DNA of 29,979 nt from a virus (IMGVR_UViG_3300020044_002186:1-29979), one strand, 5' to 3'; shown: positions 12,079 through 27,673, counted from the stretch's first letter. The notes: generated from the letters alone by a model not told the origin. Numbers and translations are program-made.

Positions 12079-12105
12079 CATATTAAACAACCAAATCAAT
12101 ATAAA

Positions 12106-13763: not shown

Positions 13764-13783
13764 TTTGTTGAATTAAAATACAT

Positions 13784-13815
13784 CCCCTGCATCGGTAATA
13801 TGGTGCAGGGGTTTA
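13784..13815 (+). terminator. GC-rich hairpin after the tail tube gene (weak terminator or stabiliser)
   Basis: CCCCTGCATCG/TGGTGCAGGGG with only a short T-run. Confidence 0.6.
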
Positions 13816-13840
13816 GAGTTTATCACCTAATCAAACACAA

Positions 13841-16882: not shown

Positions 16883-18820
16883 ATGGCATACGGTGTAAAA
16901 TATCGTTTGGAATTTGCCGACATAAAAGGCAACAAACGAAAGGTTGAGATTTTCAAAAATGGGTACACCGGTGAGGTTTTACCAATGATTGGAACAGGTG
17001 AGCCGGTTGAAATAGAGTGGAAGGCTGAGGAGGATTTATATGAGCCATTAATTGGATCATTATGCACGTTGAATTTATTAGTAACGGATGACGTTACCTA
17101 TGATGATTTTTATCTATATGATGAACGTGAATACAAAGTGGTGGTGTATTTCGAGGCATCAGCCGGATCGTGGCAAACATATTGGTCAGGATGGGTTGTA
17201 AACGATTTATATTCACAGGCATTGGTTTCCACACCATATTCATTGTCAATCACAGCCACAGACAATTTGGGGCAATTAGATGCATTTGATACATGGATGC
17301 CGGCTGTTGGGGAATCTGATCCAACATTGTGGAAATTTATGTGGAATGCATTGTCAAATTTGCAATTGGATTATGACATTTACATCAGCAATGATTTACG
17401 AATTGCAACCGATACGGCATGGAAAAACATATTTGATCAGGTAACGATAAAAAAAGCGGCATATTATCATGATAATTATATCATAAATGATTCAAAAATG
17501 ACATTGCGTTCAATATTACTTGGATTCAATTGCCGTATATTTCAATCATTTGGCCGGTGGTATATTATAAATAATTCATCGTATGGTGATCAACGAATCA
17601 TTGCAGGAATACAAGCCGGCACATACACAGGATCGGGCATTTTAACTGCAAAGCAAGGTTTTTTAAATGGTGGAACTGAGGAAATCAAATATTGGATTTA
17701 TAATGCATCAGGTGTGGAACAATCAACGGTGACAACCAATATGTTGAAAGTAATTCCAACAAATATGTTGCCAATAGGCCAAAATTTATTTCGTACACCA
17801 CGCAGGCCGGTTAAAAAATATCAGGAAATTGTAGATATTACACAAAAGCCAATTGATTTGAATTTTAACGGATCATTTGAATTTGGCACAGAGGATTGGT
17901 CAGCTAATGTTGGATCAATTGGATCACCTGAAACAAATCCATTTGCAGGGCGAAGGGCTGGATTCTTTATTGAAAAAACAAACAATTTTGCAACGTTTAC
18001 AGCAAAAATGTTTAGCACAACAACAAATGCGTTGGTTACAATTGCAAATCAATATCAATTATTATTATCAGTATTAGTTGAAAATAATGGCACATCAAAT
18101 AAATTGCCATATTACATTAAAATTGATGATTTAAATGGCACTAATTGGTATTTTAATGGTTCATCAAATGCATCACAGGCATGGGGTACAAATTTAGTCT
18201 GGAATACGGTTACAATTAATTCAACATACAAATATCAATCATTTAAAATTACAACAGCCGCAGCCCCTGTTTCGGGCCGTATTTCAGTTCATTTAGGTAT
18301 TTTACAAACAAATGATAATATAGGTCATATTGGTACAAATGTTGATAACGTTGTAATTCGAAATATTGATACAGAACAAAACGTTTACAAACAGGCATGG
18401 TTTATTCGTGAACAATCGGGAGTGTTCAAAACTTCGGATGTGTTGGAACATTCGGATATATATCAGGCAAATATCCCATCAGGCATTTTTTGGGGTAATT
18501 TTACGGACGGCAATACGTTCAAACGTGCGCAGGATGCAAACGGTACATTATTAGAACAATTGATTACACAGCAAAGATTGAATGATTTTAGGAATTATTC
18601 GATGCAATACGAGGGTGATTTGTACAATCAGGATCAATATTCAATAATGTCAATGGCGCATAAATTGTGGGTTAAATTTAATACATTAACCGAAACAGAT
18701 TCGGCAATTGTGGATTCAATCAGGGTGCAGTTAAAATCAAACATATACACCTGTCAATTCCATATCCCAAATAATTACACGGATGTGGCAAGTTCATACC
18801 GGGTTTCATATCAAGAATAA
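16883..18820 (+). CDS. Tail tip / baseplate hub protein
   Basis: 645 aa directly after the tape measure gene; beta-rich; last structural gene. Confidence 0.65.
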   Translation: MAYGVKYRLEFADIKGNKRKVEIFKNGYTGEVLPMIGTGEPVEIEWKAEEDLYEPLIGSLCTLNLLVTDDVTYDDFYLYDEREYKVVVYFEASAGSWQTYWSGWVVNDLYSQALVSTPYSLSITATDNLGQLDAFDTWMPAVGESDPTLWKFMWNALSNLQLDYDIYISNDLRIATDTAWKNIFDQVTIKKAAYYHDNYIINDSKMTLRSILLGFNCRIFQSFGRWYIINNSSYGDQRIIAGIQAGTYTGSGILTAKQGFLNGGTEEIKYWIYNASGVEQSTVTTNMLKVIPTNMLPIGQNLFRTPRRPVKKYQEIVDITQKPIDLNFNGSFEFGTEDWSANVGSIGSPETNPFAGRRAGFFIEKTNNFATFTAKMFSTTTNALVTIANQYQLLLSVLVENNGTSNKLPYYIKIDDLNGTNWYFNGSSNASQAWGTNLVWNTVTINSTYKYQSFKITTAAAPVSGRISVHLGILQTNDNIGHIGTNVDNVVIRNIDTEQNVYKQAWFIREQSGVFKTSDVLEHSDIYQANIPSGIFWGNFTDGNTFKRAQDANGTLLEQLITQQRLNDFRNYSMQYEGDLYNQDQYSIMSMAHKLWVKFNTLTETDSAIVDSIRVQLKSNIYTCQFHIPNNYTDVASSYRVSYQE

Positions 18821-18825
18821 TTTTG
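18818..18825 (+). promoter_or_regulatory. -7 promoter box for candidate sRNA1
   Basis: TAATTTTG overlapping the TAA stop of the tail gene. Confidence 0.55.
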
Positions 18826-18829
18826 TTTT

Positions 18830-18928
18830 TCATAGGTTTAGGGTTGCGCATCCGTTCATCTTATGGGTGAATCGGATGTTGATTAGGTTGAATGCAGAAT
18901 GGTCGTGGAATTATCTACGGCCATTTTT
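18830..18928 (+). ncRNA. Candidate small RNA 1 (~100 nt)
   Basis: Promoter box, internal hairpin 18849-18878, terminator hairpin 18898-18925 with T-run; G-U pairs favour the + strand; unpaired parts are complementary to phage translation starts. Confidence 0.5.
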
Positions 18929-18934
18929 GTTTTA
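18898..18934 (+). terminator. Rho-independent terminator
   Basis: AATGGTCGTGGA/TCTACGGCCATT stem (2 G-U pairs) followed by T-runs. Confidence 0.8.
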
Positions 18935-18947
18935 TTTGCCGGTTTTA

Positions 18948-18973
18948 CTAATTAGTTAATTGGCTAATTTTGA
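18948..18973 (+). promoter_or_regulatory. Promoter (-7 box TAATTTTG at 18965-18972) with overlapping inverted repeat
   Basis: CTAATTAG-N8-CTAATTTTGA, as at 2546-2571. Confidence 0.65.
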
Positions 18974-18986
18974 AAAAAAACTACAA

Positions 18987-19970
18987 ATGGGTTTAAAACA
19001 CGATCAAATCAAGGATCATTTTTTTTCATCGCCATTGTCAATGAAACATTTTTCGGAAAAATACCACGAAACGTATGGGTATTCAGATGCAAAGCAAATG
19101 CGAAAAATGATGAGCCGTTACAATATTTTATCACGTGTAAGAGCTGAAAAGACATTGGCTGATTTACCAAAGGCACAAATCGAATCCACAACATTTTTCG
19201 AATTAGAAAATTTTGGAATTGAGGAATCAATTGGTAAGGAATACACATCAGCACGATTACCGGATCATTTAAAGAAAATTGGCATATTATCCGACATTCA
19301 CGTGCCGTTTCATTCGGTCGAAGCCGTTGTGTGTGCAATTAAGCATTTAAAGGAACAAAACATTGATTGTTTGTATCTGAATGGAGACACTTTCGACCAA
19401 TATTCAATTTCCAGACACGAACGTGATCCCGATCTTAGAGACTATCCAAAGGAAGTCGAAATGTGCCGTAATTTCCTGCAAACATTGCGTGGTATATTCC
19501 CAACGATACCGATTTATTTTAAGGCAGGGAATCACGAAAACAGGCATCAAAGATATATTAACCAACAGGCAGAAGAATTTGCGCAGTTGCACGAATTGCA
19601 ATTTGAGCAATTTTTTAGATTAGATGTGTTAGACATTAAATATGTTCCTGATTGGCAGGGAATGGAAATGGGCGATTTGTTGGTTTGTCACGGTCACGAA
19701 TTGATGGCCGGTGGAATGAATCCATCGCAAAGCACGTTCAATAAAACGTTCTGCAATACGTTAATTGGACACGTTCACAGGACAACCAACACCATTAAAA
19801 AGACAGGATTTAAACAATACATTCACACGTATTCCACAGGATGTTTGACACAATTAAGCCCAAAATACTATCCATTTGCCCAGCACAATCACGGGTTTGC
19901 ATTAGTAATGATAACCGATGGGAAGGCAAAGGTTGAAAATCTAATGATAAAAGATGGAAAAATTGTGTAG
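18987..19970 (+). CDS. Calcineurin-like metallophosphoesterase with N-terminal extension
   Basis: SDIH, NGD, GNHE, HGH and GHVH motifs; ATG 18987 preferred over TTG 18960. Confidence 0.9.
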   Translation: MGLKHDQIKDHFFSSPLSMKHFSEKYHETYGYSDAKQMRKMMSRYNILSRVRAEKTLADLPKAQIESTTFFELENFGIEESIGKEYTSARLPDHLKKIGILSDIHVPFHSVEAVVCAIKHLKEQNIDCLYLNGDTFDQYSISRHERDPDLRDYPKEVEMCRNFLQTLRGIFPTIPIYFKAGNHENRHQRYINQQAEEFAQLHELQFEQFFRLDVLDIKYVPDWQGMEMGDLLVCHGHELMAGGMNPSQSTFNKTFCNTLIGHVHRTTNTIKKTGFKQYIHTYSTGCLTQLSPKYYPFAQHNHGFALVMITDGKAKVENLMIKDGKIV

Positions 19971-19975
19971 TTTTG
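19968..19975 (+). promoter_or_regulatory. -7 promoter box for candidate sRNA2
   Basis: TAGTTTTG(CA) overlapping the TAG stop. Confidence 0.55.
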
Positions 19976-19979
19976 CATC

Positions 19980-20050
19980 GGTAGTAAAGGTTTAATGATT
20001 CATACAGTTGTTGTTTAGAAAGGGCAGATCCAATGGGTTTGCCCTTTTTT
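19980..20050 (+). ncRNA. Candidate small RNA 2 (~70 nt)
   Basis: Promoter box, unstructured G/U-rich segment complementary to three early-gene starts, then a terminator. Confidence 0.52.
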
Positions 20051-20053
20051 ATT
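20019..20053 (+). terminator. Rho-independent terminator
   Basis: AGGGCAGATCC/GGGTTTGCCCT stem followed by a T-run. Confidence 0.85.
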
Positions 20054-20111
20054 GCACAGAAACGCAATATTTTGACCGTTAAATAATTATTTGATATTTT
20101 TTTGATTATTT

Positions 20112-20153
20112 TTGTTTGAAATTGTTTGAAATCAAAATAAAAGTGTAATTTTA
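20112..20153 (+). promoter_or_regulatory. Probable early promoter
   Basis: TTTG at 20125-20128 inside tandem TTGTTTGAAA x2, and variant -7 box TAATTTTA at 20146-20153. Confidence 0.5.
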
Positions 20154-20184
20154 CATCAACAAACAACAACAAAACAATAACAAT

Positions 20185-20517
20185 ATGAAAAATTCAACAA
20201 TTGACGCACAATTTTCAATGTTCAATGAGGCACAAATTGAGGCCATCAAATTAATTATTAACAAAAATTTTTGGGGTGATTGTGATCAAGAATATGCAGA
20301 TGGTAAAACATATGATACATATGGATATTATACAAACACACAAAAAGGCAAAGAGTGGTCAGGTATGATTTCAGGCATATCAAAAAAAATCAAATCATCA
20401 AAAACAAATTTAATCAATACGTTTCCTAATTGGTGGGGTGATAATAGCGGTGATATGATCTTTTTCAATATTGATTTAATTGACAAAGATGAATTAGAAA
20501 AATGGGCATCAAAATAA
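20185..20517 (+). CDS. Hypothetical protein (first early gene)
   Basis: 110-aa ORF with A/C-rich leader. Confidence 0.75.
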   Translation: MKNSTIDAQFSMFNEAQIEAIKLIINKNFWGDCDQEYADGKTYDTYGYYTNTQKGKEWSGMISGISKKIKSSKTNLINTFPNWWGDNSGDMIFFNIDLIDKDELEKWASK

Positions 20518-21656: not shown

Positions 21657-21667
21657 ATAAACAACCT

Positions 21668-22132
21668 ATGAAAAACGAATTGATGGCCGTTGATGGTCAA
21701 ATCCTCGAATTAAACAAAAAAGAAATCACGCAGTTGGCCGAAAACTTTATGGCCAACGCAGATTCAATCAACACCGTGAAATTGGCGGCACAATTGGCAA
21801 AATTCACGCATTTATCAGCCGAAATGGATAAGTTGTTAAAAGAACATTTATTTGTTGATTTGCGCCAAAATAAGGATGGCAAATTATCAGCATTTGGTGT
21901 GGACTTTTCAGAAATGGAGGGCGGTGTAAAATATGATTATTCAGAAACCGAATCATGGTGCAAATTGCAATTTGAAATTGATCGCCTAAAAGACAAACAA
22001 AAAGAAATTGAAGCATTTTGTAAGGCATTGAAATCAAAGGTTTCTATATTGGATGAGGAAACAGGTGAATTGGCTGATTTTTATCCACCATCGAAATCAT
22101 CCACAACCACAATCAAAAAAGTAATTAAATAA
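21668..22132 (+). CDS. Hypothetical protein (recombination module)
   Basis: 154 aa between ERF and the SSB-like gene. Confidence 0.75.
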   Translation: MKNELMAVDGQILELNKKEITQLAENFMANADSINTVKLAAQLAKFTHLSAEMDKLLKEHLFVDLRQNKDGKLSAFGVDFSEMEGGVKYDYSETESWCKLQFEIDRLKDKQKEIEAFCKALKSKVSILDEETGELADFYPPSKSSTTTIKKVIK

Positions 22133-22464: not shown

Positions 22465-22734
22465 ATGAGGAAAATTGTAGATAGTTACACAACACGGCAC
22501 GGTGAATTGAGGGCAATTTATTCCGTTGCAACGGCCAATTTAAAGCACAGGGATATTGAAATCGGTGCGGTATATGAATTGGAATACCGGTTGGGGAAAC
22601 AGGTTTTATTTTTGAAATCTGAATTGGATCACGTAACTGATGGAAATCGCACATTGTTTTTTAAACATCCCGATCCAGAACGCAGATTGATTGGAATCCC
22701 TATTATGTCAATCATTAGATACGTGAAAAAATGA
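22465..22734 (+). CDS. Hypothetical protein
   Basis: 89 aa, tightly packed. Confidence 0.7.
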   Translation: MRKIVDSYTTRHGELRAIYSVATANLKHRDIEIGAVYELEYRLGKQVLFLKSELDHVTDGNRTLFFKHPDPERRLIGIPIMSIIRYVKK

Positions 22735-22841
22735 GCATAGAAACAAAAATTGATTTAGTATTTTATTGGGCCATTGCACAGATGTTTTTTACGATATTAG
22801 GTGCATTAATCAATATTTATAATGAAAACAAAAACAAATAA
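22731..22841 (+). CDS. Small membrane peptide (36 aa), not in ORF track
   Basis: MSIETKIDLVFYWAIAQMFFTILGALINIYNENKNK; ATGA overlap with the upstream stop. Confidence 0.6.
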   Translation: MSIETKIDLVFYWAIAQMFFTILGALINIYNENKNK

Positions 22842-22995
22842 AACAAACGAATTGGGGTACACGTTCAATCAGGTTTGGGCGCATATCGCAAAAGAATTAG
22901 AAAATAATTTAGAAAAATTAAATAAAATTCAACCTAAACAACAAAAATATGGTAACGTTTCAGCAATATCATCAGGCCAATCCGCATCTTTATGA
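22822..22995 (+). CDS. Small hypothetical protein (57 aa), not in ORF track
   Basis: MKTKTNKTNELGYTFNQVWAHIAKELENNLEKLNKI...; fills the gap and overlaps both neighbours. Confidence 0.5.
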   Translation: MKTKTNKTNELGYTFNQVWAHIAKELENNLEKLNKIQPKQQKYGNVSAISSGQSASL

Positions 22996-23224
22996 GTTGT
23001 ACAAGGCCATTGCAATGCAGTTAATTCAGCAAAATCGCAAGGTAATTGGATCAGGATACATATTCCAAAAAATGCGTTTTGAATTTCAGTTTACCACCAA
23101 TGGTGATCCATTCAAAATCAACAACAATTTTGCGCCAATGTATGCACGTAAATTTGTTTTAGAGCATCCGCAATTTGGACACCTGTTCAAATTTAAGCAG
23201 TTAAAAGGTAGTTTATTAATGTGA
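22949..23224 (+). CDS. Phage hypothetical protein
   Basis: 91 aa; FQQYHQANPHLY...FKINNNFAPMYARKF pattern. Confidence 0.75.
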   Translation: MVTFQQYHQANPHLYELYKAIAMQLIQQNRKVIGSGYIFQKMRFEFQFTTNGDPFKINNNFAPMYARKFVLEHPQFGHLFKFKQLKGSLLM

Positions 23225-23230
23225 AACATT

Positions 23231-23238
23231 TATATTTG
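23231..23238 (+). promoter_or_regulatory. -7 promoter box for the replication operon
   Basis: TATATTTG ahead of the structured leader. Confidence 0.62.
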
Positions 23239-23243
23239 TTTCA

Positions 23244-23339
23244 TAATCAGCGGAAAGGGTAGGAGTTTTCCGGTGATTAATTGGGTTTAAGAACCACAAA
23301 GCCTGTCTGCACTCCTACGCATTCAGGCTTTATTTTTTT
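23244..23339 (+). ncRNA. Structured 5' leader with two hairpins whose loops are complementary (kissing loop / attenuator)
   Basis: Loop GTAGGAGT (23259-23266) is the exact reverse complement of loop ACTCCTAC (23311-23318); hairpin 2 is followed by a T-run. Confidence 0.68.
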
Positions 23340-23348
23340 AAAAATCTA

Positions 23349-26440: not shown

Positions 26441-26485
26441 AAATACAAGGCAATAAATGTTTAGAATTAACAAAAAAACAAACCG

Positions 26486-27211
26486 ATGAAAACTACAAAA
26501 TCAGAAATATTTAATATTGATTGTTTAGAAGGGATGAAACAATTCCCGAATAATTATTTTGATCTAGCAATTGTTGATCCTCCATATGGGATAAATGAAA
26601 GCAGTAAAAATAGAAATGGCATAACTAAAGTAAAAGATAAAAGAAATGGACGAGTTAGTTTTGTTAAAACAAATAATGAGATAAAGGATTGGGATGAATT
26701 TCCGCCAAATAAAGATTATTTTATTGAATTAAAACGAGTTTCAAAAAATCAAATAATTTTTGGGGCTAATCATTTTATTGAAAATATACCAAATGCCAAT
26801 AGTAGCAGTTGGTTTGTTTGGGATAAATGCAACGGTGATTCTGATTTTGCTGATTGCGAATTGGCATATACTAGCTTTAAATCAGCCGTAAGACAATTCA
26901 GGTATATGTGGAGTGGGATGTATCAGGGAAAACAATCTTTTAAAGATGGACACATATTTGAAGGGAATTTAAGTTTACACGAAAAAAGAATCCATAAAAC
27001 ACATAAACCCATTATTATTTATAAATGGTTATTAACAAATTATGCAAAAGAAGGGAATAAAATTTTAGACACACATTTAGGATCAGGGAGTTCAAGAATT
27101 GCAGCATATGATTTGGGATTTGATTTTACAGGATTTGAATTAGATGAGGATTATTTTATTGCATCAGATAAAAGATTTAAACAACACATAAGTCAATTGA
27201 CAATATTTTAA
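26486..27211 (+). CDS. DNA N6-adenine/N4-cytosine methyltransferase (beta class)
   Basis: Catalytic VDPPY near the N-terminus, H.T.KP, SAM-binding LDTHLGSGSS near the C-terminus. Confidence 0.92.
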   Translation: MKTTKSEIFNIDCLEGMKQFPNNYFDLAIVDPPYGINESSKNRNGITKVKDKRNGRVSFVKTNNEIKDWDEFPPNKDYFIELKRVSKNQIIFGANHFIENIPNANSSSWFVWDKCNGDSDFADCELAYTSFKSAVRQFRYMWSGMYQGKQSFKDGHIFEGNLSLHEKRIHKTHKPIIIYKWLLTNYAKEGNKILDTHLGSGSSRIAAYDLGFDFTGFELDEDYFIASDKRFKQHISQLTIF

Positions 27212-27214
27212 CCT

Positions 27215-27601
27215 ATGAAAACTACAAAAGACAAAATACGTTTATTAACATTCTTTGCATTGTGCCAAAATATGTTGGATTTCATTGATGGATCGTGGCA
27301 CGGTCATCCGGCAAACAAACAGGCAGTTAAGATGGTGACAAAGCAAATGATCAGGGAGTTGGAAAAAACAATGGCCATTTTATTCCCGGCAAACAGAAAC
27401 GATGATCCAGAATTGCCCGATGCATTGGATACATTCCAAAATGCCTGCACAGCAATGGAGTCATTTTTTATGCTTGGAATGGAAATGGATGTGATGGATC
27501 AAACAAAGAAAGATTCATTGAATACACAGATTAATATTTTGCTAAAATCATACGGAATTGATTGTTGGGAAAAGCCAATGTCAAACCTATGGAAAAATTA
27601 A
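27215..27601 (+). CDS. Hypothetical protein
   Basis: 128 aa, leader AACCT-ATG. Confidence 0.72.
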   Translation: MKTTKDKIRLLTFFALCQNMLDFIDGSWHGHPANKQAVKMVTKQMIRELEKTMAILFPANRNDDPELPDALDTFQNACTAMESFFMLGMEMDVMDQTKKDSLNTQINILLKSYGIDCWEKPMSNLWKN

Positions 27602-27673
27602 ATAAATTTACATCGCAGTTGGGTGATGAATAACTGCCGGATCAAAAGCACATATTTACCTAATCAATACAGA

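Follow-up and report, generated by a model that had tools for sequence, protein, structure and literature searches.

What lies between the tail block of this phage, whose last gene is at 16883-18820, and the phosphoesterase gene (18987)? The interval is filled by an element in which the original prediction saw a candidate small RNA (sRNA) with two exposed segments able to pair with leaders elsewhere in the genome. The window, by which we mean the whole stretch of DNA analysed (IMGVR_UViG_3300020044_002186, 29,979 nt), is its own whole record, has a terminal repeat and represents a complete 30-kb siphophage genome of Bacteroidota type with a circular map, the main genes all lying on the + strand. 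Matches to PHROG families up to 16880 comprise portal, protease, capsid, connector, endolysin, tail and tape-measure genes; past 16880 they comprise a metallo-phosphoesterase, an Erf-like annealing protein, a replication initiator, modification enzymes and terminases. Integrase, repressor and antirepressor families are absent among the PHROG matches listed (44 proteins scanned, many of which have no assignment).

The host is very likely a member of the Bacteroidota. Several genes are preceded by TAnnTTTG boxes, and the cultured matches of the last tail gene are to phages of Flavobacterium, Cellulophaga and Salinibacter only. The 645-residue product of this gene has no PHROG or Pfam family; its N-terminus shares 25-29% identity with structural proteins of Cellulophaga and Salinibacter phages and also with a hypothetical protein of Flavobacterium phage 11b. 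A Sediminibacterium MAG holds a contig (L112) with an 89% identical capsid, possibly through an accident of binning. Genome G001 served as the putative host genome, an assignment that is tentative. The features of the locus are as follows.

16883-18820, + strand: final tail-block gene, its 645-aa product likely a virion structural protein; the stop codon of this gene opens the element
18818-18825, + strand: -7 promoter-like box TAATTTTG of Bacteroidota type, beginning on the TAA of gene 16883-18820
18825-18838, + strand: segment A, a U-rich anti-start-codon stretch, a secondary seed at best
18848-18879, + strand: internal hairpin (-16.8 kcal/mol, z -4.4), conserved in structure and not in sequence
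18879-18893, + strand: segment B, a predicted single-stranded seed complementary to the phage's own leaders, preferring those of its own clade in 5/5 clades
18896-18934, + strand: intrinsic-terminator-like hairpin (stem 18897-18927) and U-tract, z -6.7, likely the 3' end
18948-18972, + strand: promoter-like motif (CTAATTAG...GGCTAATTTTG) for the next gene, repeated at 2546-2570

Box, segments, hairpin and terminator all lie where they had been predicted, the hairpin being placed here at 18848-18879. The + strand had been favoured on account of G-U pairs, and folding of 18830-18934 agrees, giving -36.6 kcal/mol for this strand compared with -18.8 kcal/mol for the other. The core of segment B is unpaired with a probability of 0.61-0.86 that varies with the 5' end; in this phage the value is 0.84 if the RNA starts at the hairpin and 0.62 otherwise. 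In forms that include segment A, segment B is open only in part (core unpaired probability 0.37-0.80).

The close clade (clade I) contributes 52 loci, which reduce to 29 distinct versions of the element. Invariant in 20 aligned versions are TTTTCATAG (the core of segment A), TTGATTAGG (segment B) and most of the terminator, and in the same 20 versions the upper hairpin varies on both sides; conservation of the seed exceeds that of the stems. The comparison covered 80 of 441 stretches matched as relatives of the tail gene. Five phage clades, the tail proteins of which are 41-83% identical to that of the window, share one layout, which runs from the stop codon through a U/G-rich stretch, the hairpin and segment B to the terminator. 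In distant phages (tail protein 41-55% identical) segment B reads TT(GAT/GGT/GT)TAGG, the next promoter is kept, with its GnCTAA(T/C)TTTG motif, and the stem sequences differ. Beyond the five clades, locus L199 adds the same layout with different stem sequences. Clades I, II, IV and VI have support in the tree of tail proteins; clade III is defined by its RNA. A near-identical RNA element in clade III lies behind very different tail alleles (L157/L159 and L164/L190, 55% and 41% identical to that of the window, respectively), which indicates that the element stays in place when the upstream gene is swapped.

Both stems carry compensatory changes. In a 15-sequence alignment 17/25 pairs are altered on both sides, with 9/11 consensus pairs in the internal hairpin and 8/14 in the terminator stem. 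Some 97.6% of alignment cells are paired, a value reached by 0/500 shuffles and compared with 34-53% for slid structures; the consensus structure was derived from the same 15 sequences, which favours its score. A homologue model had been proposed as a check: built from this alignment it scores 85-108 bits across the training clades and the unseen locus L199. The accompanying search of Rfam returned no family, with no match at the gathering score in the window and 18 weak, chance-level hits at E <= 10 in 18700-20200. Scanning viral contigs with two motifs yielded 43 hits, and the eight that fell on contigs outside the clade proved on inspection to be due to chance; a terminator-anchored metagenome scan gave 17 hits, four of them unrelated. 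No open reading frame is conserved on either strand, the lengths in relatives running from six to 53 residues (minus) and from one to 85 (plus); a small gene on either strand is ruled out by this lack of conserved length. Judged from sequence, the conserved RNA element is real and its covariation in trans, described below, is unusually clear.

A low-GC group of phages (tail protein about 31-38% identical) has only a pyrimidine-rich stretch and a terminator at this place, with no hit by model R1. In L170-L188 the pre-terminator stretch is complementary over 8-10 nt to the beginning of the 13841 orthologue (MANKKRG); the two are partly covarying, but there are A-C oppositions and the match is unclean.

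Does the element recognize starts of the phage's own genes? We defined start regions as -30 to +15 of 45 starts, covering 6.9% of the genome. All six predicted complementarities are real. Segment A is the complement of 21663-21676 over 14 nt and of 27210-27221 over 12 nt, and segment B complements 22927-22937 (11 nt), 13825-13834 (10 nt), 27658-27667 (10 nt) and 12088-12099 (11 of 12 nt). Every perfect match of at least 10 nt falls inside a start region (2/2 for segment A, 3/3 for segment B), as do most of at least 9 nt (4/6 and 4/5, respectively). The summed length of the four best start matches is 44 for segment A compared with 29.5 in 3000 shuffles (p 0.0007) and 38 for segment B compared with 27.4 (p 0.003), p-values that are optimistic since the segments had been chosen by their matches. 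None (segment A) and about four (segment B) of 2713 native windows do as well. The hairpin arms and the terminator are not enriched for start-region matches (p 0.31, 0.94 and 0.39), and within the element the enrichment at starts that had been suggested as a check is confined to the two segments. Ranked with accessibility over 44 starts, the six genes first proposed are, between them, the leading predicted targets of the two segments.

22927-22943, + strand: best predicted segment-B target, in the leader of gene 22949 (91 aa), ranked first when accessibility is included (-11.5 kcal/mol)
13825-13834, + strand: predicted segment-B target in the leader of gene 13841, CCTAATCAA in 16/16 distinct close leaders
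12088-12102, + strand: predicted segment-B target in the short 5' UTR of gene 12106, CCAAATCAA in 15/17 leaders, rank 3
27658-27669, + strand: predicted segment-B target in the leader of gene 27674, CCTAATCAA in 15/16 leaders
21663-21676, + strand: predicted segment-A target at the start of gene 21668, CCTATGAAAAA in 24/27 leaders
27210-27221, + strand: predicted segment-A target at the start of gene 27215, poorly conserved, CCTATGA in 7/19 leaders

The predicted targets include both tail-block and non-structural genes. Gene 13841, which lies behind the major tail genes, encodes a tail protein of PHROG 2115 and by its position probably a tail assembly chaperone; gene 27674 encodes a DUF3310 protein (Pfam PF11753). 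Gene 21668 sits behind the Erf-like gene, and its start takes the top rank for segment A with either 5' end. Many other leaders of gene 27215 read AAACCGATG in place of ACCTATG. Genes 22949 and 21668 have no Pfam family, fall in unnamed atlas clusters and have no significant PDB or Foldseek match; gene 22949 belongs to a large unnamed family with 2741 representatives. Two of the leaders, 27615-27673 of the DUF3310 gene and 13770-13840 of the 13841 tail gene, are longer and conserved, and in the latter a hairpin immediately precedes the target motif.

The comparison between clades provides an independent test. It used 15 genomes from five clades, mostly partial loci of 12-23 kb with starts called mechanically. 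Segment B pairs best with the leaders of its own clade in 5/5 clades, rank 1 of the 120 permutations, and with five clades only the permutation p has a floor of 0.008. The trace is -35.0 compared with -0.2 +/- 4.6 for 25 shuffled seeds, and over 24 alternative settings (segments of at least 15 nt) the rank is 1 in 21 and 2 in three. No own-clade preference is found for segment A (rank 46), the hairpin arms (73 and 54) or the terminator (31), and the shared 12-nt core by itself reaches ranks 3-13 only. The strongest segment-B target of clade I is gene 22949, the leader of which has no match in clades II, III and VI. In clade II 20 perfect pairs run up to the Erf AUG and a second gene has 15, clade IV has 17 and 14 perfect pairs, and clade III forms a long imperfect duplex at the SSAP leader that is kept in L190, where a different-looking gene follows. 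Orthologues of 12106, 13841 and the DUF3310 gene recur across clades as weaker targets, for which the own seed is often no better than the seeds of other clades. Over the 15 genomes 17/21 perfect matches of at least 10 nt fall in start regions that cover 4-9%; 7/15 genomes, as partial loci, have no perfect match of this length. On these comparative grounds segment B would be the seed, and the proposal of a multi-target regulator that base-pairs with the phage's own leaders is well supported, chiefly through this segment.

These data bear directly on a rival explanation, in which the locus is no more than a terminator of the usual kind, with a U/G-rich tail and a further hairpin that stabilizes it, and the complementarity is a by-product of A/C-rich leaders. 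U/G-rich pre-terminator stretches are indeed common in these phages, and such an account may be largely true of segment A. For segment B it is largely refuted: composition-matched shuffles lack the own-clade signal, separate clades have perfect matches of 15-20 nt and the seed is better conserved than the stems. As an account of the whole element we consider it very improbable.

The type of mismatch and the placement of the copies are informative. Imperfect positions of the transition type are G·U in 40 cases and A·C in four. Taking one genome per clade the ratio is 19:1, compared with 71% in shuffled seeds, where one of 60 replicates was as extreme. The target copies all have one orientation and mostly end no more than 15 nt from the AUG. 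This bias towards G·U and the single orientation near the AUG favour RNA pairing over a DNA site.

Linkage within clade I is relevant to the same choice. In 28 genomes, which are not independent, seed base 18888 and leader base 22932 are combined as 12 T-A, 11 G-C, five G-A and no T-C (Fisher p 0.00025). The block 22800-23300 is linked to the seed with a median r2 of 0.34-0.41, compared with 0.07-0.12 for the DNA between, and of 1515 sites the seed site is the fourth most strongly linked to the 22949 block, although 4 kb of weakly linked DNA lie between. The stretch 22500-23300 as a whole shows long-range linkage to the allele of the seed. Two sites, 22854 and 23043, of the coding block (22822/22949) follow the seed allele in 28/28 genomes, the paired base having an r2 of 0.49, and a few unrelated sites score as high in linkage as the seed. 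Since coding sites track the seed better than the paired base does and unrelated sites equal it, shared ancestry contributes to the linkage.

Segment B and the leader motifs might alternatively be sites at which a regulator encoded by the phage, such as the 22949 product, binds double-stranded DNA, one of the copies being inverted, in which case covariation would follow the specificity of the protein. The 22949 product is confidently modelled as a small helical domain (pLDDT 89) with weak fold neighbours that are mostly helix-turn-helix or winged-helix domains (Z up to 5.9; values under 6 show no function), its coding block carries the two sites that match the seed allele throughout, and several target motifs lie directly behind TAnnTTTG boxes. 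We nevertheless regard this as unlikely in view of the excess of G·U over A·C, the shared orientation of the other copies and their ends within about 15 nt of the AUG, the location of the sole inverted copy between two covarying RNA stems, and clades II, III and VI, where the 22949 leader has no match.

Our preferred reading is an sRNA that represses multiple targets among the phage's own genes, and from the sequence evidence we place the probability of this at about 0.65. The hairpin-seed-terminator unit behind the tail genes would yield an sRNA of about 105 nt, in which segment B would be exposed and would base-pair in trans with leaders on several mRNAs of the phage itself. Pairing would span about -22 to -5 of the start codon, block initiation and lower translation, the pairing zone being the A-rich unstructured stretch on which Bacteroidota ribosomes depend. 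According to PMC7797042, which cites Baez et al., low structure and adenines at -3, -6, -12 and -13 promote initiation in Flavobacterium. That the outcome would be repression is suggested by analogy with GibS and FopS. Genes that recur as targets (12106, the tail gene 13841 and the DUF3310 gene) would be tuned through the shared core (reverse complement ACCUAA(U/C)CAA), and the variable flanks would add one or two strong clade-specific, non-structural targets: in this phage 22949, in clades II and III the Erf/SSAP leader and in clade IV the 21668 orthologue.

The same RNA might act in cis, through read-through of the tail block onto downstream leaders, or might activate or stabilize its targets instead of repressing them; both possibilities appear improbable. 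A circular map with all genes on one strand would suit read-through, as would the position of the 13841 target upstream in the same block, but terminator-like sites at 18896, about 20020 and 20528 separate the seed from downstream targets, and the targets are 3-9 kb off, on both sides. The predicted pairing covers the initiation zone itself.

How the RNA is produced, and what remains of segment A, depend on the 5' end. The box in the 29 close versions reads TAnnTTTG in 15, TAnnTTGY in 13 and neither in one; PMC9723704 places both forms at -12 to -5 in Flavobacterium. Such a box occurs on 23/176 gene stops. It is absent in clades II and VI and present in clade III and part of clade IV. From the position of the box we would predict a transcription start at about 18830-18832; a promoter of the element's own is plausible here from the sequence and is not general among the clades. 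Transcription would proceed from the box on the stop codon or yield the RNA as the 3' end of the tail mRNA, and a processed form starting at the hairpin would suit the more open core of segment B.

The original prediction carried two caveats about segment A, and both hold. A start near 18830 leaves only about 8-9 nt of the segment in the RNA, the predicted pairing with 21668 then being -9 kcal/mol for the short form compared with -18 kcal/mol for the long form. CAT commonly follows the box, at 0 to +2 in 28/29 close versions, and part of the 14-nt match is therefore probably promoter or start sequence together with the common ATG AAA AA start. CATAG is missing from segment A in 7/15 representative genomes; the segment is variable, is lost in some clades and lies largely upstream of the predicted start. 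We consider segment A an optional, weaker second seed. In nine sister loci that do not have the element, a segment-A-like stretch (TTTCATA...ATAGGTTTA) is found with a terminator, usually directly after the phosphoesterase; in four sister loci segment-A-type stretches score 0.2-2 SD over shuffles against their own starts.

Host mRNAs with similar leaders could in principle be the main targets, and most of the characterized trans-acting phage sRNAs that a 2025 review (PMC12197685) lists do target host genes. The motifs are not enriched in G001, however, with counts of 7, 4, 7 and 5 compared with 8, 13, 13 and 11 for reversed-pattern controls. The pair of 7 and 13 is that for ACCTAATCAA, a comparison limited by the tentative host assignment; of its seven contexts, in which genes were not called, a start directly behind is evident only at the tail gene of the phage contig. 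Host targeting is unlikely, and as the main role of the element highly so.

Which known RNAs does the element resemble? In the open literature searched we found no phage sRNA, nor an element such as this, for a Bacteroidota host, and in the 2025 review (PMC12197685) the strings 'Bacteroid' and 'Flavobacter' occur nowhere. The predicted mode of action is like that of GibS/FopS and of c4, and the element, which fails their defining structure or family tests, is probably a member of neither family. It does have the traits of the trans-acting sRNA class: it is non-coding, its structure is conserved and it ends in an intrinsic terminator.

GibS and FopS of Bacteroides thetaiotaomicron repress by pairing near starts (PMC7366714, PMC11697453). 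Like the element they are Bacteroidota RNAs with an AU-rich single-stranded seed, an intrinsic terminator and multiple targets, and they pair near start codons that have no Shine-Dalgarno sequence, as is predicted here. The seed of the element is likewise complementary to translation initiation regions, by predicted pairing. FopS-14 is derived from a 3' UTR, and a FopS-like sequence has been seen in one phage. In contrast to GibS and FopS the element is present in a single copy, its predicted targets are the phage's own genes and its seed turns over between clades. The FopS consensus runs from a 5' single-stranded stretch straight into the terminator, whereas here a conserved hairpin of 11-14 bp precedes the seed. 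FopS is reported to have been deposited in Rfam (PMC11697453), though it may be missing from the copy that we searched, and neither FopS nor GibS matched in the window at the gathering score or in 18700-20200 at E <= 10. Multiple copies in the host, as for FopS and GibS, were not found: model R1 gave weak 36-bit hits in 2/101 genomes of the G001 family and, with this sample of family genomes and stricter filters, none in G001 itself. The model R1 hit in L300 is without the seed.

The c4 RNA of P1/P7 (RF01695) is, like the element, phage-encoded and trans-acting, with two exposed segments between stems (PMC5320573, PMC12197685). It blocks ribosome access on a phage mRNA, as predicted here, and a variable segment gives specificity between relatives. 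The c4 RNA differs in having three stem-loops, cleavage by RNase P, a role in control of the ant operon in lysogeny and hosts among the Proteobacteria; the element has two stems, a linear seed, a terminator end and several unlinked targets, and no lysogeny genes were found. The consensus is of two stems, not three, and Rfam gave no hit to RF01695. Covariation of an exposed segment with phage leaders, as in c4, is seen for segment B and not for segment A. VpdS of VP882 and PreS of lambda are also phage-encoded trans-acting base-pairing sRNAs (bioRxiv 10.1101/2024.10.31.621285, PMC12197685), and VpdS also affects phage mRNAs. These two are Hfq-dependent and mainly host-directed, whereas the coevolving targets here are phage leaders; Bacteroides has no obvious Hfq or ProQ (PMC7366714).

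The precedent of c4 (PMC5320573) raises the possibility that the same pairing is selected against superinfecting kin or for a carrier state, the seed serving as an immunity code. Seeds are clade-specific, strong targets lie in recombination and other non-structural genes, and a box of host-sigma type would permit expression outside lytic growth. We think this quite unlikely, given that a tail gene is among the predicted targets and that the 44 proteins scanned include no integrase or repressor family among the PHROG matches listed.

Returning to a repressor of the phage's own genes, we offer a broader view only tentatively and think it less than an even chance: the element may define a self-directed sRNA regulon of freshwater-type Bacteroidota siphophages, with a clade-specific code that locks modules against recombination. 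If so, a single RNA encoded behind the tail genes would set the translation of scattered structural and recombination genes, new targets would be recruited by rewriting a few seed-flanking bases and the clade code could also silence superinfecting kin. The promoters of this small phage all look like host-sigma boxes, so that an added layer would be needed for timing and stoichiometry, and an sRNA directed at the phage's own genes would provide it. That the target block is linked to the seed suggests that RNA pairing can constrain modular phage evolution. Covariation in trans of an sRNA with shifting targets is rarely so visible in sequence data, and the natural seed-target variants of the five clades are ready-made compensatory pairs with which the mechanism is directly testable.

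Other units nearby may be mentioned. The palindrome-plus-box CTAATTAG...G(A/G)CTAATTTTG at 2546-2570 and 18948-18972 stands ahead of the protease and phosphoesterase genes and is a candidate regulated promoter. A second unit (sRNA2, 19968-20056) behind the phosphoesterase consists of a U/G-rich stretch and a terminator, and in most clades the stop codon carries a TAnnTTTG-like box. Start matches are enriched in its 3' stretch (p 0.0007), which prefers own-clade leaders (rank 3 of 120); its best targets are 23968, 20185 and Erf, and its 5' end (19975-19982, CATCGGT) complements the AAACCGATG start of gene 26486 (26480-26488). Lastly, the replication gene has a leader at 23231-23345 behind a TATATTTG box, the counterpart of which in L060 (5239-5361) folds into several stems, and this leader is a possible cis-regulatory RNA.
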